A stretch of DNA of 64,000 nt from Candidatus Bathyarchaeia archaeon (GTDB lineage Archaea; Thermoproteota; Bathyarchaeia; Bathyarchaeales; Bathycorpusculaceae): positions 128,001-192,000 of the forward strand of contig JAVZLK010000001.1 of the NCBI GenBank assembly GCA_038883795.1, written 5' to 3'. Shown piece after piece: positions 50,919 to 59,640 of the stretch. Position 1 is the stretch's first letter. Each line of letters opens with the position of its first letter. A program made the position numbers and the translations under genes. The notes beneath the pieces are model-generated. The model saw only the letters and a program-made list of their open reading frames with translations. It was not told where the DNA came from and searched no databases.

Positions 50919-51515
50919 GTGTTAGAATTGAAAAAATCAATTATAATAGGTATAGATTTAGCGGGAACCCCCAAAAATCCAACGGGATGGGCTTTGTGGA
51001 AGGATAAAATGGTGAAAACGGCTTTAGTTTATACAGACGAGGAAATTCTTGAGGGTGTTTTAAGCCATGCGCCATCCATTGTGGCGATAGACGCTCCGTT
51101 AAGGCTGCCGAAAGAGGGAATTTTAAGGAAGGCAGATAAAGAAATGATAAGGCTAGGATACAGGGTTTTTCCGCCAAGCCTCCCAGCAATGAAAAAGCTA
51201 ACATTACGGGCCATAAAAATAAACAAGTTAATACTGGAAAAAAGCTATAAAATAATAGAAGTACACCCAACGTCAACCAGAAAGGCTTTGAGCATGCCCT
51301 TAAAAGAGTGGGAAAGAATTCAAATAGCCTTGCAGACTTTAGGAGTAGAAGGAGACATAAAAACTCGCCCTTTGACGTCTCATGAAATCGATGCAGTAAC
51401 AGCAGCCTTAACGGCCTATCTCCACATGCAAAACCTAACCGAAGCGATAGGAGACGCAGAAGAAGGCTTCATAATCGTTCCTAAAAAAATGGATTGGAGA
51501 ACCCTAAAAATATGA
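50919..51515 (+). CDS. DUF429 RNase H-fold protein
   Basis: GIDLA, VAIDAPL, IEVHP, HEIDAV. Confidence 0.85.
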   Translation: MLELKKSIIIGIDLAGTPKNPTGWALWKDKMVKTALVYTDEEILEGVLSHAPSIVAIDAPLRLPKEGILRKADKEMIRLGYRVFPPSLPAMKKLTLRAIKINKLILEKSYKIIEVHPTSTRKALSMPLKEWERIQIALQTLGVEGDIKTRPLTSHEIDAVTAALTAYLHMQNLTEAIGDAEEGFIIVPKKMDWRTLKI

Positions 51516-53065
51516 GCCAAAATGAAAAGTTGCATAAAGCTGTGGAATTAACTATTGAGGCAGGATACCAACTTGACAAAGACGCTTTCGAATTCCTAAG
51601 CAGTTTGGCGGCAAAAGAGGACCCTACAGAAATCATAAATAAAGCCCTACAAAAAATTGGAATGATGAAAGAAAAACCGCTTTTCATTGGTAGATCCTTT
51701 CTGGAAGAATTGGTAAAAGAACAAAAACCGAAAGAGGAGGTTCTTATTCAACAAATAGAACCATCCCCAACGATACAGGAAACTGTGCCACCTTTTGGGA
51801 AAGGAAAATTCCACCCATTTGCAAAAGACATTGAAGCACGCATTAAGGTAATTGATAACCCAGCGGAAAAGTTAAGCTCAAGCGGAACGATGGAGGATTA
51901 TCTGCAATATTTTCAAGATAGATTTAAGCGCATAGAAAAATTGCTAAGGCAACGAATAGATGTTAAAAGTGCAACTTCAATAATTGAAGCCCTAAAATCT
52001 CCTCCAAACACCCGTTTAAAAGTAATTGGCATGGTCACAGAAAAGAGAGAAGCAAAACAGAAAATCTTGTTAACAGTTGAGGATTTGAATGCAAGCGCTA
52101 CAATGTTAGTGCCTCAAACCGCACCAGAAGAAGTTTTGAAAAAGGCACGTTGCCTCCTCCTTGATCAAGTTGTCTGTTTTAGTGTTGTAAAAACAAGAGG
52201 CAACCTATTAATAGTTGAAGATATAATCTTGCCAGACATAGCACAGAAAACACCTCATACGGCGCCAATTCCAGTTTACGCTGTACTCACCTCGGATATG
52301 CATGTGGGCAGCACAAAATTTCAAAAAAAGGCTTTTAACCGCTTTCTTTTATGGCTTAATGGCGAATATGGAAACGAAAAAATGAGAGAGATAGCAAGCC
52401 ACGTCAAATATATTTTAGTGGCAGGCGATATTGTGGACGGTATAGGAGTTTATCCAAACCAAGTTAAAGAATTAGCAATAAAAAATATCGATGAGCAGTA
52501 TAGGCTTGCCCAAGAATATTTTGAAAACATTCCAGAATACATCGAAGTGACGGTCATACCAGGAAACCATGATGCCCCCAGAAAAGCGCTGCCACAACCA
52601 CCCATAAAGAACCCTTTCTTGGAAACACTACAAGAAAACCGAAAATTCTATTCCCTTGGAAACCCTTGCACCATAAGCCTTCACGACGTTGAAGTTCTGT
52701 TATACCACGGTCGCAGCTTAGACGACGTCATCCCCACAGTTCCCGAAATGGATCCCAACCAGCCTGAAAAAGCAATGAAGCTATTACTACAGAGTCGCCA
52801 TTTAGCGCCCACATATGGCGAAAAAACACCCATCTCCCCTGAAAACAGAGACTGCCTAGTTATTGAGCGCGTTCCCGACATTTTCCATGCCGGTCACATA
52901 CACGCATTAGGCTATACATCTTATCGTGGAGTCTTAATTGTAAATTCAGGAGGATGGCAAGAGCAAACAGATTATATGAGAAGAATGGGCTTTGTTCCAA
53001 CGCCCGGAAAAGTTCCCGTAGTTAATCTCCAAACACTGGAGGTCAATATCCTTTCATTCTCTTAA
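51512..53065 (+). CDS. polB: DNA polymerase D small subunit (DP1, proofreading exonuclease)
   Basis: YFQDRF, SDMHVGS, GDIVDGIGVYPNQ, PGNHD, HGRS, RHLAPTYG, HAGHIH, WQEQT. Confidence 0.95.
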   Translation: MSQNEKLHKAVELTIEAGYQLDKDAFEFLSSLAAKEDPTEIINKALQKIGMMKEKPLFIGRSFLEELVKEQKPKEEVLIQQIEPSPTIQETVPPFGKGKFHPFAKDIEARIKVIDNPAEKLSSSGTMEDYLQYFQDRFKRIEKLLRQRIDVKSATSIIEALKSPPNTRLKVIGMVTEKREAKQKILLTVEDLNASATMLVPQTAPEEVLKKARCLLLDQVVCFSVVKTRGNLLIVEDIILPDIAQKTPHTAPIPVYAVLTSDMHVGSTKFQKKAFNRFLLWLNGEYGNEKMREIASHVKYILVAGDIVDGIGVYPNQVKELAIKNIDEQYRLAQEYFENIPEYIEVTVIPGNHDAPRKALPQPPIKNPFLETLQENRKFYSLGNPCTISLHDVEVLLYHGRSLDDVIPTVPEMDPNQPEKAMKLLLQSRHLAPTYGEKTPISPENRDCLVIERVPDIFHAGHIHALGYTSYRGVLIVNSGGWQEQTDYMRRMGFVPTPGKVPVVNLQTLEVNILSFS

Positions 53066-53595
53066 GATAAACCACGTGCAATCAACCGTGCAACCCGAAG
53101 GGGTTCGGGAATTCTGCCAAAAAGGCGCAAAGAACGCACAAAGCTAGAAGCCCACCTAACATTTGTGCCCACCGTTTCCATATACAATGGAGCTTCGCCT
53201 TTCTTGATGTGGATTTTATAAACTGGGCCAAGCCTTTGAAACACTCCCCAGCGCGCCTCCCAATCTTTAAAATGTCTTTTGAGGGCACGTTTTACCGCTT
53301 TGTTATTTGGTTTTGTTTGCGCTATTATGAGAAGGGGCTTTCTGAATTTTTCGTGAATCAGCATTGGATCGATAAGGTTGAAACCAGCATAAGATACACC
53401 AGCTAACAGAATGGCATCGAATTCCCAATCCTCTAGGATTTCGGCAAGCTTTTCCGTCGCGTCTAATCCATCAACCGTTATTTTTGTGACTTTCACGTTT
53501 TCAATGGTAAATTGTCTTAGCAAAACTATGGCGAGAAGAGTTTCGCGGGTTACTCCTTTCTGGAAACTTCCGTCTTCAACCCCCACGGTTAGCAT
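53062..53595 (-). CDS. DUF99 endonuclease V-like protein
   Basis: VGVEDG, VDGLDAT, GVSYAGFN, IPEPLRVARLIA. Confidence 0.87.
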   Translation of the reverse strand: MLTVGVEDGSFQKGVTRETLLAIVLLRQFTIENVKVTKITVDGLDATEKLAEILEDWEFDAILLAGVSYAGFNLIDPMLIHEKFRKPLLIIAQTKPNNKAVKRALKRHFKDWEARWGVFQRLGPVYKIHIKKGEAPLYMETVGTNVRWASSFVRSLRLFGRIPEPLRVARLIARGLS

Positions 53596-54820
53596 GTTTT
53601 GAAAGGCTTTTTGTTTCATATTCCACCAGACGCCCAAGTCTAGGGTCATTAGCGAAAACGTCTCTAATAAGAGTGCGCGCTATTTCTAGCCTAATTTTTT
53701 TCGTTCTTCCATACCGTCCCATGCTTATAACCTTAGCATTCACAAGCCCCATAGAATCTAGCTCATTCACCAAAGTGCTCAGCCGCCGTTGTGTTAAAGG
53801 GGTAACGCCCACTTCTCCACAAAGTTCCGCATACACATCATATATCTCGCCTGTAATGGCGCTATGAATGTTCGCCCTATTCAAATGATATACGCTCAAG
53901 ATCACAAGCTTTGAATGCAAAGTTAAATTCCGTAAGGCCTCGACAACTCGGTTGTGTTCAATGTGTTTTTCAGCTTCTCGAACATGCTCTTCAGCTACAA
54001 AACTTGCTCCCTTCCGTTCGGCAACCTCCCCAGCAACACGCAACAAATCTAAGGCTCGCCGCGCATCACCATGTTCTGCAGCTGCCAAAGCAGCGCAAAG
54101 GCTTATAGCTGCTTCAGATAAAGCGCCGTCGTGAAAGGCTAGTTTAGCCCGTTCCAACAAAATGTTTCCCAATTCACTAGCATCGTAGGGCCTAAAAACA
54201 ATTTCTTCCTCGCTTAAGGAACTAAAAACTCTTGGGTCCAGAAACTCTTTCAGGCGAAGATCATTTGATATACCCACAATGGACGCTTTACTATTACGCA
54301 AATTTTCATTTATTCTTGTCAACTCATAAAGGAGATTATCTCCGCGTACTTTTACTAGAGCGTCAATTTCATCTAAAGCGACAATAAAAACAATTTTTAA
54401 AACATCTAAACCAGCTTTAAATCTATCAAAGACTTCACCGACAGATAAACCAGTAAACGGAACATGCACACCTATACTTTGGCATAATCCAGAAAAAACG
54501 CGGTATTCAGAGCCAGCCATGCGACAGTTTACATAACAGAATTTGACAGGAGCGTTAAACTCCTTAGCTTTTTCCTCTAAATGACTTAAAACATATTTTG
54601 TTACCGCCGTCTTGCCTGTACCAGTTTTTCCATATATAAAAACGTTGGAGCATCTAGACCCTTTAAGAACTGGGGCAACTGTTTCCCCGAGTCGTGTAAT
54701 TTGTTCTTCTCTATGAGGAAGTTTATCAGGTAAGTAATCATGCCGCAAGACCTCTCTGTTTTTGAAGATTTTATTATTTGAAATAAATTTCTCGAACACG
54801 TCGTCAAGGATGTTGCTCAT
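53576..54820 (-). CDS. cdc6: Orc1/Cdc6 replication initiator
   Basis: IFKNREVL..LPHRE, YGKTGTGKT, LDEID, HGDARRALDLLR, GRYGRT wing. Confidence 0.97.
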   Translation of the reverse strand: MSNILDDVFEKFISNNKIFKNREVLRHDYLPDKLPHREEQITRLGETVAPVLKGSRCSNVFIYGKTGTGKTAVTKYVLSHLEEKAKEFNAPVKFCYVNCRMAGSEYRVFSGLCQSIGVHVPFTGLSVGEVFDRFKAGLDVLKIVFIVALDEIDALVKVRGDNLLYELTRINENLRNSKASIVGISNDLRLKEFLDPRVFSSLSEEEIVFRPYDASELGNILLERAKLAFHDGALSEAAISLCAALAAAEHGDARRALDLLRVAGEVAERKGASFVAEEHVREAEKHIEHNRVVEALRNLTLHSKLVILSVYHLNRANIHSAITGEIYDVYAELCGEVGVTPLTQRRLSTLVNELDSMGLVNAKVISMGRYGRTKKIRLEIARTLIRDVFANDPRLGRLVEYETKSLSKHANRGG

Positions 54821-55574
54821 GCGAGCCCCTCGGTAACTTTAGTGGTAAAACCCCTATTTCCGGTAGAAAAATAAGCTCTACCATACAAAAAACTAAATGT
54901 TCAACACAAAAATCCTAAAACAAAACTTTGCACATTTACTTGCAGTTTTGGTTAATGAAACACACACCCCACAATTTCTTTTGGAACTCTGTAAGTTTCA
55001 GAATAACTTTTGAGATTCCTGTTAGCTAGGAATATACTCTGAAAGGTTAGAGGACATCATTTTACTATAATACTTATTGTAAAAGTTTTTTGACAAACAC
55101 TAAAAACATAATTTACAACAAAAATGTGTAAAAGGAAATTTTTCCACAAGAAATGAAGGGGTGCCGCTAAAACAAAAATGAACAACAGCTAATACTAAAT
55201 TTCATATTATATTACCTAATTTTCACTTTCGCACTTTAATGCGCCTCTCGCTAAGTTCACAATTTGTAAAGATCTTGTGAAATTAACTTAATAACGCCTC
55301 TTTTTCGACTCCACTTTTCTAAATATTTACTTTTTCTTGCTTCTTTTATGTGAACCGGCCACCCCTTCACTTCCGGTGGAAATAGACATTATTCCATGTT
55401 TTTATTTCTAATTCTCTTCTAGAGAATATGTGAAGTCAGTAAAGTCAAAAACGTTAAAATTTTTCCTTCTTTTTTCTTTTCCTCTATTTAATACACTTTT
55501 TCATTTTTTCTGATCTACCATAACAGCTATAACTTGTGAAGTGTAAATTGTGAAACACCTATGGTGCTTCGCTG
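54821..55574. other. Chromosomal replication origin (oriC)
   Basis: About 750-bp AT-rich intergenic region upstream of cdc6 with four ORB-like TTCYN4GAAN2-4GGGG boxes: 54850-54869(-), 54966-54987(-), 55141-55166(+), 55357-55382(-); the last two are inverted around an AT-rich core. Confidence 0.9.
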
Positions 55575-56006
55575 ATGCCAGCTAAAAAAATGCGTGTAGA
55601 GCTCTACGATGGCGAGGGCAATAAATATACGGTGTCCTTTGAAGGTCAAATAACTAGGGAAAAGGCTCTCCGCCTATTGGATATGGTAGAGCTTTTGGGT
55701 GGGGTATCAGCAAGTGAAGGAAACCCAGGGACACCTATCCCTGTGACGTCCGACCAGTTAAATAAGTATAGCAAAGTTCGTATGCTAATTCAGAAACATT
55801 TTCCGTTAGTTTGGTTTTCTTCTCGGGATGTTCAGTTAGTTTATGAGCAAGAATTAAAGGAGCCTATAAGTCTTAGCACTGTTGCAACATACCTTTATAG
55901 AATGGCAAGCAAAGGGATGCTTGCTAAAGCTGGGGCCTCTAATCGTTTGAAATACAAGTTGATGCCCACTTATCCGCAAATATTGCCTAAACAGCAGACA
56001 CCATGA
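55575..56006 (+). CDS. Origin-adjacent protein: small N-terminal domain plus C-terminal winged HTH
   Basis: WFSSRDVQ..YEQ..ISLSTVATYLYRM..G.L....R.KY wHTH pattern; divergent from cdc6. Confidence 0.75.
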   Translation: MPAKKMRVELYDGEGNKYTVSFEGQITREKALRLLDMVELLGGVSASEGNPGTPIPVTSDQLNKYSKVRMLIQKHFPLVWFSSRDVQLVYEQELKEPISLSTVATYLYRMASKGMLAKAGASNRLKYKLMPTYPQILPKQQTP

Positions 56007-56013
56007 TACCCCT

Positions 56014-56733
56014 TTATTTGGCTTCTGTTTCCTTCTTTTTTAGAATGTTTTCCATTTCCTTCTTCACGTTATATTTGAATGGAATTTTGCTTGTATCCCT
56101 CTCCAAGTACCCTCCTTCGTAAAGCTTCTTCATCAACCGCGCTGTATGTTCTCGGCTGAGCTTGATGCGCTCTTTTATTTCAGGCGCGGTTTTAGGGCCT
56201 TCAGAAGCCAACATTTCCAGAACAGCCAATTCTGTTTCTGTGAGAGGGGCTAAGGCCTTTTCTCTTTTTATGGGTATTACCGCCTCAATTTTTGCCTCGG
56301 GAACCATAGAAAACTGTCGAGTTTGCTCCTCAACTTCCGAGACCTTCGAATTTAACTTTTCAAATGCCGCAGAAAGAGCACTTACTCTTTCATCAACTTC
56401 ACCAAGTCTTTTTGAAATTTCCTCTTTATGTTCTAGAACTTTACTTACTTTTTCCTCTAAAGATTGAACCCTCTTAGAAGTTTCTTCCGTTTTGTTTAAT
56501 GCTCTTTCACTTTTTGAGGAAAGGGCTTCAACTTTATAAACCACCAACTCCATCCTTTCAGCTTCGCGCTTTAACTCTTTATTAAAGCTCACTACAATGT
56601 CGCCAATGATTTCCCTTGCCTTTTCATATTCTTTCCGCACCTTTTGCACCTGTCTATAGTACTCAACAGCAGCCCATACAGTTATGACAACCAAACTTCC
56701 AACAAGAATCAAAGGCGTATCCAAATGGAACAC
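56014..56733 (-). CDS. Membrane-anchored coiled-coil protein with C-terminal winged HTH
   Basis: N-terminal TM LILVGSLVVITVWAAV, about 110-aa heptad coiled coil, LTETELAVLEML..TAPEI..LSREHTARLMKKLYEGGYLER. Confidence 0.8.
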   Translation of the reverse strand: MFHLDTPLILVGSLVVITVWAAVEYYRQVQKVRKEYEKAREIIGDIVVSFNKELKREAERMELVVYKVEALSSKSERALNKTEETSKRVQSLEEKVSKVLEHKEEISKRLGEVDERVSALSAAFEKLNSKVSEVEEQTRQFSMVPEAKIEAVIPIKREKALAPLTETELAVLEMLASEGPKTAPEIKERIKLSREHTARLMKKLYEGGYLERDTSKIPFKYNVKKEMENILKKKETEAK

Positions 56734-56739
56734 CTCACT

Positions 56740-57010
56740 TGTGATTTATATGTGATTACGCATAATCCAAGCATGTTACATCACACATCACAGTTTTTAA
56801 CATAAAAGATTTAAAGATTACGGTCAAATCGGAACTATAAGATTCGATGACATCACACATCACAATAATCGAGGCAAACACTTGATACTAAATGATACAT
56901 TAAAAGTCAGCTTTTTAGGAGTTCTTGATTTTTCCGCCCTAATTTGCGCCCCAATTAGCATAGTGAATTAAAGAGTACTTTTCCCTTGCATGTGACTTGT
57001 GATGTCACAT
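56740..57010. repeat. Heptad TGTGATG/CATCACA repeat array
   Basis: ACATCACACATCACA at 56778-56792 and 56850-56864; TGTGAT at 56740 and 56751; TGTGACT-TGTGATG-TCACAT at 56991-57010. Confidence 0.75.
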
Positions 57011-57484
57011 AAAGCCCTCAGCGGGGTTTGAAAGCTTTTTTAAACTGTTTTCAAGCTCTTCCCTAACCATCTTAATGAGTTTTAAATGTTCATCAAGTTC
57101 GCTGCCCTTGTTTGGTATATCCTTGTATGCTTCCATAAACTCGTGTAATTTGTTTGCTATTTCGAGATATGGATCGAGCGTTGTGTCTTCAAACACTCCT
57201 AAGTATCCTAGGAGCAGTATGGTGTAGATTGATTTTATGACGTTTTCTTTTGCTTGTTTTAAGGTTCTGTTAAAGGCTCCGCGGCTTATTTTTGCCTTTG
57301 ATAGCCTTAATCTGGCTTTTTCGTCGTATTTTAGTTGTTTGCCTGAAATATTCTCGGCTAATATGTCAATAAGCAATGTTTCAAGCTGAGTTTTTGTTAA
57401 GTGACTGTTTTTGGCGAGCGTTCTCACAATAGGGTCGTTTAATGCGTTTGTTAACCAGGCTTGGACATTTTCTTTAAGCTTCAA
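57005..57484 (-). CDS. Helical HTH-like (Tfx/sigma-4-like) hypothetical protein
   Basis: LTKTQLETLL..ISRGAFNRTLKQAKENVIKSIYT; TTG start. Confidence 0.65.
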   Translation of the reverse strand: MKLKENVQAWLTNALNDPIVRTLAKNSHLTKTQLETLLIDILAENISGKQLKYDEKARLRLSKAKISRGAFNRTLKQAKENVIKSIYTILLLGYLGVFEDTTLDPYLEIANKLHEFMEAYKDIPNKGSELDEHLKLIKMVREELENSLKKLSNPAEGFM

Positions 57485-57627
57485 GCTTTTCTCTCCACAG
57501 ACTTGCTGGATGGATACACTTTTGTATACAATTATTATTTTAACTTATCGAGTGCTATGATGAAAAGTATGCTTTGCTAACACAAACATTTTATGTTAAA
57601 GGAAATAGTGTAGGATGAGGATGTCCT

Positions 57628-58800
57628 TTGAATTTAAACTTTAAGCCCGCAGATCGCCTAAAAGGCATAAAATATTCTGGAATACGCCGCTTTTTTGAAA
57701 TAGCCCAAAAAATGCCAAATGTTATCAATTTGAGCGTCGGTGAACCCGATTTTGCGCCGCCAAAGCACGCTTTAGATGCCGGTTGGCAAGCCATGAAAGA
57801 AGGTAAAACCCATTATACACCAACTAATGGGATTCCTGAGCTTAGAGAGGCTTTAGCGCGGAAAGCCTATCAAGACTATGGTCTCCAATACGATTCAAAC
57901 GCTGAAATACTTGTTACTGTAGGCGGGACTGAGGCTATTTCTTTGGCCGTTGCTGGGCTGGTGAATCCCGGTGATGAAGTGCTGATTCCAAACCCCGGAT
58001 TTGTTTGTTATGAACCAAGTGTTCTCTTGGCAGGCGGTGTTCCTGTTTATGTTCCTTTGCGGGAGGAAAATTCTTTCAAACCGTCTGTTGAGGATGTGAT
58101 ATCGCGTATCACGAAAAGGTCACGTGTGATGATACTAAACTATCCTAACAACCCTACGGGTGCTGTTCTTTCTCATGATGAAGCAGCCACTTTGGCGAAA
58201 ATTGCTGTAGAGCATGATCTGCTTGTGATTTCAGATGAGGTTTATGAGAAAATAGTTTATGATGACGCTAAACATAGTTGCTTTGCGGCTTTTCCTGGAA
58301 TGCGAGAACGCACTCTCGTCATTAACTCTTTCTCTAAAACTTATGCCATGACGGGTTTGCGTGTTGGGTACATTTATGGACCAAAAGAGCTTATTTTTTT
58401 TCTTTGGCTCGTTCATCAGTATACTGTTGCCTGTGTAGATAGTCTCGCACAACATATCGCCTTAGCAGCATTGAAAGGTTCACAAGACTTTGTTAAAAAT
58501 ATGGTGCAAGAGTTTGATAGGCGAAGACAATTAGTGCATAAAAGGCTTATGGAAATTGAGGGTTTTAATTGTAGTCTCCCCAAAGGCGCTTTTTATGTTT
58601 TCCCAAACATAAAAGCCTTTGGCATGAGTTCAGAGGAGTTTGCTGAGTTCCTTGTGAAAGAAGCGGGCGTTGTGACTGTTCCAGGGTCTGCATTCGGCGT
58701 TCATGGTGAAGGACATATAAGAATTTCCTATGCTGCGGCGTATGAAAAATTAGAAGAAGCATTAAACCGTATAGAAAGAGCTGTTAAAAAGATTAAGTAA
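57628..58800 (+). CDS. Class I/II PLP aminotransferase (AspAT-like)
   Basis: GEPDF, NYPNNPTG, SDEVY, SFSKTYAMTGLRVG. Confidence 0.93.
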   Translation: MNLNFKPADRLKGIKYSGIRRFFEIAQKMPNVINLSVGEPDFAPPKHALDAGWQAMKEGKTHYTPTNGIPELREALARKAYQDYGLQYDSNAEILVTVGGTEAISLAVAGLVNPGDEVLIPNPGFVCYEPSVLLAGGVPVYVPLREENSFKPSVEDVISRITKRSRVMILNYPNNPTGAVLSHDEAATLAKIAVEHDLLVISDEVYEKIVYDDAKHSCFAAFPGMRERTLVINSFSKTYAMTGLRVGYIYGPKELIFFLWLVHQYTVACVDSLAQHIALAALKGSQDFVKNMVQEFDRRRQLVHKRLMEIEGFNCSLPKGAFYVFPNIKAFGMSSEEFAEFLVKEAGVVTVPGSAFGVHGEGHIRISYAAAYEKLEEALNRIERAVKKIK

Positions 58801-58806
58801 ACTCTT

Positions 58807-59640
58807 TTATAACTCCTCTGTATGCCTTTTTAATTCGTCGAAAAGTTCCGGACGTAAATCCCTTAATGTAGGAACAAAAGTTTCCACGGGCTTTATGTTT
58901 GCATAATCCACATCACACATCACAAGGTCCTCTTCATCATATTTTGCTTGGGCTAAAACTTTTCCATTAGGCCCCACAAGTCGGCTTCCTCCCCAAAACT
59001 GCAAGCCATCTTCTATTCCTACAAGATTAACATAAGCTAGAAAAGCCGTGTTCTCCATGGCTCTAGCTATGGTTAGCGCCTCAAAAAATGCTTTTCTGAT
59101 TGCTGGGGATGCAGAAATGCAGACTATTAATTGGGCCCCTTTTAGCCTTATTAAGCGGCTTACTTCTGGGAAAAATATGTCGTAACATATGATTAAGCCT
59201 ATTTTTCCAATTTTTGTTTCAAAGGCTGTTGCGTGATATCCATGGCGGAAATACCTTTTTTCTTCAAAGACGCTGTGAGTTGGAAGATACATTTTTCGGT
59301 ATTTTCCTATGAAGCCTTCCGGGCCTATGAGGACCGCCGCATTATAAAGGGTAGCTTTAGTTTTTTCGCTTAATTCCGGCATTCCAAAAACGATATAGGA
59401 GTTTGTTTTCTTGGCTATGTCTTCTAAGGCTTTAACCGAAGGCCCCGGTATTGTTTCTGCTAACTCATATAATTGGTCTCTAACAGTGTAGCCTGTTAAC
59501 GAAAGTTCTGGAAAAATTGTAAGGTTTGCACCCTGTTTTTTAGTTTTGTTTACAATAGCCTCCATTTTCTTTATGTTTGCTGCTTTGTCTCCGCGTTTGC
59601 AGCTGATTTGCGCTAAGGCCAATTTAATTTTATTTTCCAT
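58807..59640 (-). CDS. Carbon-nitrogen hydrolase (nitrilase family)
   Basis: FPEL, YRKMYL, ICYDIFFPE catalytic Glu-Lys-Cys. Confidence 0.92.
   Translation of the reverse strand: MENKIKLALAQISCKRGDKAANIKKMEAIVNKTKKQGANLTIFPELSLTGYTVRDQLYELAETIPGPSVKALEDIAKKTNSYIVFGMPELSEKTKATLYNAAVLIGPEGFIGKYRKMYLPTHSVFEEKRYFRHGYHATAFETKIGKIGLIICYDIFFPEVSRLIRLKGAQLIVCISASPAIRKAFFEALTIARAMENTAFLAYVNLVGIEDGLQFWGGSRLVGPNGKVLAQAKYDEEDLVMCDVDYANIKPVETFVPTLRDLRPELFDELKRHTEEL

Follow-up and report, generated by a model that had tools for sequence, protein, structure and literature searches.

Beside what we accept as the replication origin (oriC) of a Candidatus Bathyarchaeia archaeon lie three small genes, here called P1, P2 and P3, in a stretch of 64,000 nucleotides that we refer to as the window (contig JAVZLK010000001.1, positions 128,001 to 192,000; coordinates count from its first letter). 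The spacer between P2 and P3 holds an array of TGTGAY/RTCACA hexamers that is the densest in the genome, keeps one layout among relatives of the same order and, in other families of the class, occurs together with P2. P2 encodes a winged-helix protein with a predicted membrane anchor at its N terminus. The reading we favor, at chances that we would call about even, is that P2 binds this array and controls its own promoter, with P1 and P3 served by separate operators. P1 (55575-56006, plus strand) encodes 143 amino acids with a C-terminal winged helix; P2 (56014-56733, minus strand) encodes 236-239 amino acids that comprise a transmembrane anchor, a linker and a C-terminal winged helix; and P3 (57005-57484, minus strand) encodes a helical orphan protein of 159 amino acids. 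An earlier reading of this DNA, referred to here as the original prediction, had placed three DNA-binding-type genes next to oriC. Their coordinates, the winged helix of P1 and the transmembrane-linker-winged-helix plan of P2 were borne out, but P3, while helical, gave no helix-turn-helix match. A search of the full-text literature turned up no account of these genes, nor of any membrane-anchored winged-helix protein at an archaeal origin.

Genome-wide counts refer to the assembly of 2,182,157 bp (2.18 Mb), in which the contig carrying oriC (C1) is 280 kb long. Nine hexamers fall within 270 bp in the 300-bp interval that starts at 56740; the next densest interval of the genome holds four, and the mean is 0.17. 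All four genome-wide matches to RTCACA-N-RTCACA lie in the locus, and both TGTGAY-N5-TGTGAY and the palindrome TGTGAY-RTCACA have a single match, at 56740 and 56998, respectively. When three relatives were scanned whole (2.2, 1.6 and 0.9 Mb), nine of the ten double-heptad matches lay between P2 and P3 and the tenth was a look-alike in a CN-hydrolase gene. The original prediction had named enrichment of the heptads near the origin as a test; heptad pairs are indeed unique to the locus in this genome and in the three relatives, but they form one cluster, with no spread centered on the origin.

Within the array, the 15-mer ACATCACACATCACA occurs exactly at 56778 and 56850, with an inverted copy carrying two mismatches at 56991 and a further exact copy at 58910. 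Shuffled sequences are expected to hold 0.09 matches, at least four matches were seen in 0 of 100 shuffles, and the genome holds only three exact copies, all in the window. These three had been reported as intergenic repeats. Each is present and exact, but the third (58910-58924) lies in the coding sequence of the CN-hydrolase gene, where it encodes V-M-C-D-V. In a codon alignment of 26 orthologues this match is kept only where both the peptide and its codons are kept; most relatives lack it, even one from the same genus, and the copy is probably a coding look-alike that stands outside the system. A mobile element or attachment (att) site had been considered on account of GCATAATCC, which is common to the first and third copies, and was rejected: the codons explain the third copy, there is no integrase, and synteny is order-wide.

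Read from the P2 start codon, the array begins with site D (56740-56757), TGTGAT-N5-TGTGAT, which lies between the predicted transcription start site and the start codon. Site C (56778-56792) is the first ACATCACACATCACA copy and covers the start site predicted from a TATA-like element. This element, preceded by a possible B recognition element (BRE), is found at 56809-56824 on the minus strand, where it reads ACCGTAATCTTTAAAT. Site B (56850-56864), the second 15-mer copy, precedes the TATA-like element by about 35 bp when read in the direction of P2, and site A (56991-57009) reads TGTGAC-T-TGTGAT-GTCACA, with the palindrome TGTGATGTCACA, and overlaps the P3 stop codon at 57005-57007. The repeats previously listed for this spacer were all found, but the pair that forms site D, which is kept in relatives, had been overlooked.

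In the order-level sample, 41 relatives were searched and 29 loci were aligned, and the P2-P3 spacer of these 29 has one layout, in the order D-C-TATA-B-A. The consensus of site D is TGTGATT-N4-TGTGATT. Site C, with the consensus GTTRCATCACACATCACA, is followed by a promoter-like block, ATTTAAAGATTAYGGT, and by site B, ATGAYGTCACACATCACA. Some 90-330 nt of variable, T-rich DNA separate the latter from site A, TGTGATTTGTGAYGTCAC, whose final hexamer holds the P3 stop codon. In the P2 sense, the block ACCRTAAT-CTTTAAAT is best read as a BRE and a TATA box, which would put the start site under site C. The composite ACCRTAAY + CTWTAA has only two matches in the genome, at the putative promoters of P1 and P2. 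In loci of other orders, the TGTGAY/RTCACA palindrome at the 3' end of P3 recurs. The heptads had been taken for marks of the origin, a role that their positions speak against: they sit at what appears to be the promoter of P2 itself, a placement like the one that the original prediction had named as counting against it, and there they bracket the BRE/TATA-like element and overlap the predicted start site.

The class-level sample consists of 20 loci centered on P3, drawn from other Bathyarchaeia families. With a cluster defined as at least four hexamers separated by gaps of no more than 80 nt, 12 of the 13 P2-bearing loci have one, against zero of the seven P2-less loci, and the array therefore travels with P2. 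A profile search for P2 elsewhere in the seven P2-less genomes found only weak coiled-coil matches. Where P2 occurs without P1, the arrays are kept (6/6 loci). The GTGAA-type repeats upstream of P1, for their part, remain in genomes that have no P2, so the TGTGAA set travels with P1. The three genes had been proposed to form one module, a proposal that we abandon, as P1 and P2 have each been lost independently and each gene of the trio has its own operator motif.

Residues 164-223 of P2 match the Pfam families MarR (PF01047; 30.9 bits, cut-off 24.6) and TrmB (PF01978; 27.7 bits, cut-off 25.6), and both domains are also precomputed for P2 homologues. Public annotation of the protein goes only as far as 'MarR family transcriptional regulator'. 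The recognition helix, LSREHTARLMKKLYE-GYLER, hardly varies, and 15-25 residues follow the winged helix to the end of the protein. A hydrophobic window of 19 amino acids is present at the N terminus of 27 of the 28 aligned orthologues (Kyte-Doolittle 1.85-2.75), and in the 28th the start of the open reading frame (ORF) was chosen too short. In the 27 orthologues with this window the anchor is preceded by 0-6 residues, with 0-1 lysines or arginines before it and 3-7 after it, and the rest of P2 should therefore be cytoplasmic. TTG at 56724 is a possible alternative start of the gene. Many coiled-coil families of Pfam match residues 33-150. The distance from the end of the anchor to an IPIK motif stays within 119-132 residues although the linker is the least conserved stretch in sequence, and this linker of about 125 amino acids is probably a coiled coil. 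Prediction of a P2 homodimer gave a score of 0.13 against a mark of 0.42, which decides neither way, and dimerization through the linker is an assumption.

Membership of P2 in established regulator families was also assessed. The scores of P2 against the Lrs14/Sta1 models are far below their cut-offs (NF040939, 27.1 bits against 90; NF053606, 24.4 against 80). P2 does not belong to the TrmB family proper, as its winged helix is C-terminal and Pfam found no effector domain. The joining of a transmembrane segment to a DNA-binding domain is that of a membrane-bound one-component regulator. No sensor domain of the ToxR/CadC type is seen, with 0-6 residues before the anchor and no further domain found with Pfam.

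The Cdc6/Orc1 initiator gene (53576-54820, minus strand; Pfam Cdc6_C 3e-27, Cdc6_lid 2.6e-25, and AAA) adjoins an oriC-like intergenic region of 754 bp and 32% GC (54821-55574) that extends to the start of P1. The sequence and an inverted-repeat scan revealed a core resembling an origin recognition box (ORB), ATTTCCGGTAGAAA, at 54856-54869, inverted relative to CTTCCGGTGGAAAT at 55370-55383. The Cdc6-P1 spacer measures 692-824 bp in 29 related loci, and 9-mers of the TTCCAGTGGAA type are common to 13-16 of them. The minimum of cumulative GC skew on contig C1 falls in the bin 180-185 kb, corresponding to 52-57 kb of the window, in a skew that is weak and taken from a single contig. Because of the inverted ORB-like cores, the ORB cores in relatives and the skew minimum, we accept the spacer as an archaeal oriC of the Orc1/Cdc6 type, in which inverted ORB elements flank an AT-rich stretch next to cdc6. 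From the ORBs to the hexamer array the distance is 1.4-2 kb, or about 4.5 kb where a NurA-HerA gene pair is inserted. A second full-length Cdc6 paralogue (30% identity) is encoded elsewhere in the same assembly (G000:C17:11172-12275), as are two shorter Cdc6-like fragments (C59:5262-5921 and C40:12-641); a second origin is possible.

In the AlphaFold2 model of P1, made from a 29-row alignment, a beta-hairpin and helix at the N terminus are joined by a disordered linker to a winged helix at the C terminus. Residues 62-130 have a predicted local distance difference test score (pLDDT) of 80-92, and Foldseek matched the winged helix to the DNA-binding domain of Fur, to RosR and to MecI/BlaI at probability 1.0 and E values of about 0.008-0.05. 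The Pfam match of P1 is sub-threshold only, its beta-hairpin and helix were matched to no fold, and a PDB sequence search gave nothing useful. The candidate promoter and operator of P1 (55517-55554, plus strand) consist of ACCATAACAGCTATAA, which is BRE/TATA-like, at 55517-55532 and TGTGAAGTGTAAATTGTGAA at 55535-55554. Upstream of P1, all order-level loci hold ACCATAACAGCTATAACT, the pattern TGTGAA-N-TGTAAA-N1-2-TGTGAA and a CACC...GGTG pair that ends in the ribosome-binding site, with one genome-wide match for each pattern. The repeat TGTGAAG-TGTAAAT-TGTGAAA, previously grouped with the heptads, is present at 55535 but belongs to a separate TGTGAA class and not to the TGTGAY heptads. Between the operator and the start codon (55555-55574), CACC-N3-8-GGTG is seen in nearly all order-level loci; the GGTG arm is the P1 ribosome-binding site and might thus be masked by a small hairpin.

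Sites of the TGTGAA class continue into the P1-proximal half of oriC (55256-55434), with TTCACA at 55256 and TGTGAA at 55276, 55349 and 55429, and flank the ORB core at 55370. Altogether the 754-bp spacer contains six TGTGAA/TTCACA words against 0.49 expected, a density that by itself is not unique in the genome. Measured from the start of P1, the words lie at about -325/-305, -232, -152, -46 and -31, positions found again in most of the 29 loci, and the word at -232 always keeps a distance of about 20 bp to the G-string and dyad of the ORB. Given this positional conservation around the ORB, the motif set that touches the origin is the P1-type and not the heptads.

P3 is the best conserved of the trio, with a mean column identity of 71% in the 29-row alignment. 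The AlphaFold2 model is all-helical (pLDDT 71) and is confident over the N-terminal 95 residues, and no sequence match was found in Pfam, NCBIfam or PDB. Foldseek with the full-length model gave no match at E <= 0.001, and in a wide structural scan the best Z of 6.6 came from low-confidence C-terminal helices and is in the noise range for helical proteins. The description of P3 as helix-turn-helix-like is thus unsupported, since no such family or fold was matched. A pair of helices resembling sigma-70 region 4 (ISRGAFNRTLKQAKENV by eye; Atlas 0.79) is taken as a lead only. The protein has 3548 database relatives, all 'hypothetical' and, where named, all from Bathyarchaeia, and it is present in 164 of 201 genomes of the class. 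An operator-like repeat, GTATACAAAAGTGTATCC, lies upstream of P3 (57512-57529, minus strand), just downstream of a TTTAAAA-type box. The order-level loci have the TTTAAAA box followed by GTATACAAAANTGTATCC, which has one genome-wide match, and the P3 motif can be written GTATAC-N6-GTATCC. A near-match to its core, TATACAAAAACGTAT, is found at the very start of contig C13 (G000:C13:61).

Among the 41 order-level relatives, P1 was detected in 36, P2 in 35, P3 in 37 and a Cdc6 orthologue in every one. Synteny with cdc6 in relatives, which the original prediction had looked for, was confirmed: the order PolD-Cdc6-oriC-P1-P2-P3 was found in all 28 fetched loci holding the genes. We discount this as evidence of an origin link because the aminotransferase, CN-hydrolase and NadE genes are equally syntenic at this level. 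In the class-level sample, Cdc6 is found within 10 kb of P3 in 15 of the 20 loci, four have only the small subunit of DNA polymerase D (PolD-small) and one has neither; 12 of these 15 have ORB cores in the stretch from Cdc6 to P1 or P2. A search for P3 in 131 genomes of other classes of the phylum found relatives in 44. Sixteen of these loci were inspected, of which 12 have a P2-like gene beside P3 and seven have Cdc6 within 10 kb, four of the seven with ORB cores. The association of the trio with the origin is old and goes beyond chance neighborhood.

Several lineages depart from this arrangement. All four genomes of one family, f24 (G204, G192, G097 and G166; loci L043, L044, L054 and L061), have no orthologous cdc6. 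There P3, P2 and the arrays stay beside PolD-small, no ORB cores were seen in these loci, and the only Cdc6 found is a paralogue of 30-33% identity, about 340 kb from P3 in the sole single-contig genome. This loss of the origin-linked cdc6 may reflect a change of main origin. A Caldarchaeum-type locus (L069:9821-10614) has a P3-like gene (131 amino acids) and then a P2-like protein of 146 amino acids. This protein has a hydrophobic anchor segment and the same LSREHTARL recognition helix as P2, but its linker is short, and no cdc6 lies within 10 kb of the pair. The P2-like protein of another class (L077) combines a coiled coil with a winged helix and shows no obvious anchor.

If P2 controls its own promoter through the array, it would be held in the membrane by its N-terminal anchor, and a linker of conserved length, about 125 residues, would carry the cytoplasmic C-terminal winged helix. 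This winged helix would bind the nine hexamers of sites A-D. With site B upstream of the BRE/TATA-like element, C over the start site, D in the leader and A at the P3 stop codon, occupancy would control P2 transcription, presumably by repression, and perhaps read-through from P3. P1 would bind the TGTGAA sites at its own promoter, which continue for some 300 bp into oriC around the ORB, and P3 would have the third motif, GTATAC-N6-GTATCC, as its own. If P2 binds, DNA at 1.4-2 kb from the ORBs would be membrane-held. Besides the travel of the array with P2, we count in favor of this reading the uniqueness and conserved order of the sites, the scores of the winged helix above both the MarR and TrmB cut-offs, the conservation of the anchor and its topology across orthologues, the half-site in common with TrmBL1/Tgr, and the separate unique operators of P1 and P3.

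Several considerations weigh against it. Nine hexamers over 270 bp, one of them at the stop codon of a neighbor, exceed what plain autoregulation needs, and it is hard to see what purpose a regulator would serve if its own gene held all its strong sites. Both the promoter of P2 and its start site are themselves predictions from the DNA. One P2-bearing locus (L053) falls below the cluster threshold, and the genomes compared are kin, such that the co-occurrence counts overstate their independence. Furthermore, P3 is still a candidate binder or co-binder because the loci were centered on it and it is present throughout.

The selected function of P2 and its array could instead be that of an origin-proximal membrane tether or centromere-like site, with autoregulation as a by-product, which we consider unlikely. 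Such a role would account for a single unique multi-site array per genome, found beside oriC in all order-level and most class-level loci, and for sites confined to the binder's own gene, as is typical of centromere-binding proteins. An intrinsic anchor with essentially no external domain or sensor and a ruler-like linker fit a spacer, and the linkage of P3, P2-like and P1-like genes to Cdc6 and ORBs extends to other classes. However, P2 and the arrays are missing in seven of 20 lineages, and six of these loci keep Cdc6, three of the six with ORB cores as well. Conversely, f24 keeps P3, P2 and arrays with neither an orthologous cdc6 nor ORB cores found, and the Caldarchaeum P3/P2-like pair has no cdc6 within 10 kb and its P2-like protein no long linker. 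The array occupies the apparent promoter of P2 rather than the ORBs or their surroundings, and no partner ATPase is encoded in the module as judged from the ORFs of the window and Pfam. A gene can also be tied to replication by position and have another task: Haloferax OapA, at first associated with replication on account of its location, is the vesicle GTPase ArvA (PMC10927574). We likewise doubt a broader scheme in which the trio forms an origin-linked control layer of Thermoproteota, where P1 on ORB-interleaved TGTGAA sites would couple Cdc6 loading or firing to P1 expression, and P2 would tether the newly replicated origin region to the envelope on a stalk of fixed length, without ParA/SegA.

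That the hexamers serve P3, P1 or an unlinked factor, with P2 no more than the regulated gene, is in our judgment quite improbable. P3 occurs in every sampled locus and has its stop codon within site A; P1 has a winged helix and a motif, TGTGAA, with the same TGTGA core; and the restriction of ACCRTAAY + CTWTAA to the P1 and P2 promoters suggests a common factor. Yet arrays are absent from 7/7 loci that carry P3 without P2 and present in all six that carry P2 without P1, and the persistence of P1-type GTGAA repeats without P2 makes the two motif classes independent. That the repeats act as RNA, with arms C/D and A/B folding in the P2 leader, in a P3-P2 intercistronic transcript or in a plus-strand small RNA, strikes us as highly improbable. 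Arm A could pair with arm B over 17 nt (88% complementarity), C and D could form two 6-bp helices, and T-runs occur in the variable middle of the spacer. Against a fold, the start-to-start spacing of C and B drifts from 61 to 74 bp, the interior of about 90-330 nt is unconserved, and in the window the second heptad of site A has changed without a matching change in site B, leaving a mismatch. Other orders reshuffle the number, spacing and orientation of the hexamers and keep the hexamer itself, which fits protein sites and not a fixed fold. An Rfam scan of 54700-57700 at E values up to 5 found no real family match, save for two chance-level matches elsewhere. Two runs labeled metatranscriptomic, which are probably DNA, gave contigs of related strains only, and the single raw-read RNA run placed 0 reads.

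Among characterized regulators, TrmBL1 and Tgr of the TrmB family offer a close parallel in binding sites. They recognize TATCAC-N5-GTGATA, the Thermococcales glycolytic motif, repress from the start site and activate from upstream of BRE/TATA (PMC4158304). P2 passes the TrmB cut-off, is associated with the same GTGAT/ATCAC half-site and has candidate sites at the two corresponding positions, upstream of BRE/TATA and at the start site. It differs from them in having one site cluster per genome and no regulon, and direct heptad pairs and zero-spacer palindromes in place of the N5 inverted repeat. The C-terminal rather than N-terminal winged helix, the lack of a sugar-binding effector domain and the membrane anchor set it apart from the TrmB family in general. 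Bacterial ToxR/CadC and ArnR of Sulfolobus use a transmembrane segment of their own to fix a cytoplasmic DNA-binding domain to the membrane, and they carry a sensor domain outside it or a signaling module. P2 shares the membrane-tied DNA-binding domain and differs in having 0-6 residues before the anchor and in placing that domain beyond a linker of about 125 residues.

In sporulating Bacillus, RacA acts with DivIVA; both RacA and Noc occupy numerous sites across wide regions near the origin and depend on a partner protein or an amphipathic helix for contact with the membrane. P2 resembles them in combining a DNA-binding domain with a long, probably coiled-coil stretch and in the idea of an envelope-held origin, but has one cluster of sites and an intrinsic anchor. 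Pfam detected no homology to RacA or Noc in the proteins of the module. A RacA-like spread of sites was not seen among double-heptad matches, which lie within 270 bp apart from the look-alike 2 kb away; single degenerate hexamers cannot be judged in this respect. The omega protein of pSM19035 is a ribbon-helix-helix protein that binds WATCACW heptads and works with a ParA-type ATPase. The array is like its sites in the 7-bp unit, the ATCAC core, the direct and inverted copies and the position at the gene's own promoter. The analogy to omega drawn in the original prediction nevertheless fails at the level of the proteins, as P2 and the C-terminal domain of P1 are winged helices and the module has no gene for a ParA-type ATPase. 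Neither ParB/parS nor SegAB was indicated, with no ParB- or ParA-type family among the Pfam matches of seven neighboring proteins or of the ORFs at 50-64 kb, a search that did not extend to the rest of the genome.

The nearest precedent for TGTGAA sites flanking an ORB is UBP with its ucm motif. UBP is a non-initiator whose ucm motif lies between ORBs in Sulfolobus origins, and a beta-rich saddle protein with hundreds of chromosomal sites that contacts MCM (PMC12141716). Compared with UBP, P1 (beta-hairpin, helix and winged helix) and P3 (all-helical) showed no relation in sequence or fold, and the motifs found here are locally confined. Another trio of small conserved genes beside a main origin is oapABC/arvABC of Haloferax, which encode a small GTPase, a DUF2073 protein and a zinc ribbon protein and drive vesicle formation (PMC10927574). 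Like P1, P2 and P3, these genes were first suspected of a role in replication; the proteins are unrelated. Their outcome warns against deducing a function from a place beside the origin.

Some features of the surrounding DNA deserve mention. In 12 of the 28 related loci, an insert of 2.6-2.7 kb with genes co-oriented with P1 separates P1 from P2 (L017:4554-7137, also L016, L018, L020, L024, L032 and L034-L039), and L023 has fragments only. One of its genes encodes a NurA-like protein of about 345 amino acids (Atlas features 0.95, 30/30 matches in NurA clusters), for which a PDB sequence search gave nothing useful, and the other a divergent HerA-like ATPase of about 520 amino acids (Pfam DUF87, 3.4e-11). 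The window has no insert at 56006-56014, and a search of this genome gave no HerA-like protein. A defense island was considered and rejected, as PADLOC gave just weak coiled-coil and HerA matches. PolD-small is encoded at 51494-53065 on the plus strand, followed by Endonuclease dU at 53062-53649 on the minus strand. In the ORF listing, Endonuclease dU and Cdc6 share 74 bp of the minus strand (53576-53649); either Endonuclease dU starts further in or the two genes are tightly coupled. On the far side of P3, the genes encode a class I/II aminotransferase, the CN-hydrolase and then, judging from the translation read by eye, an apparent NAD synthetase (NadE).

Bathyarchaeia are among the most abundant uncultured archaeal groups, and to our knowledge nothing is known of their chromosome organization. 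What is known of archaeal origins comes mainly from Orc1/Cdc6 and ORB elements, with accessory factors only now emerging (UBP, 2025). The locus offers three small proteins that are soluble or easily truncated and three short, unique and deeply conserved motifs, which makes it amenable to in vitro work without a genetic system. A P2 that binds the array would be a rare winged-helix regulator in that it has a membrane anchor of its own and lacks a sensor domain. P1 would be a candidate modulator of origin firing, provided that it binds the sites on either side of the ORB. Should the trio prove to have autoregulation only, it would still be a clean example of three private operators that predate the divergence of the classes of the phylum.

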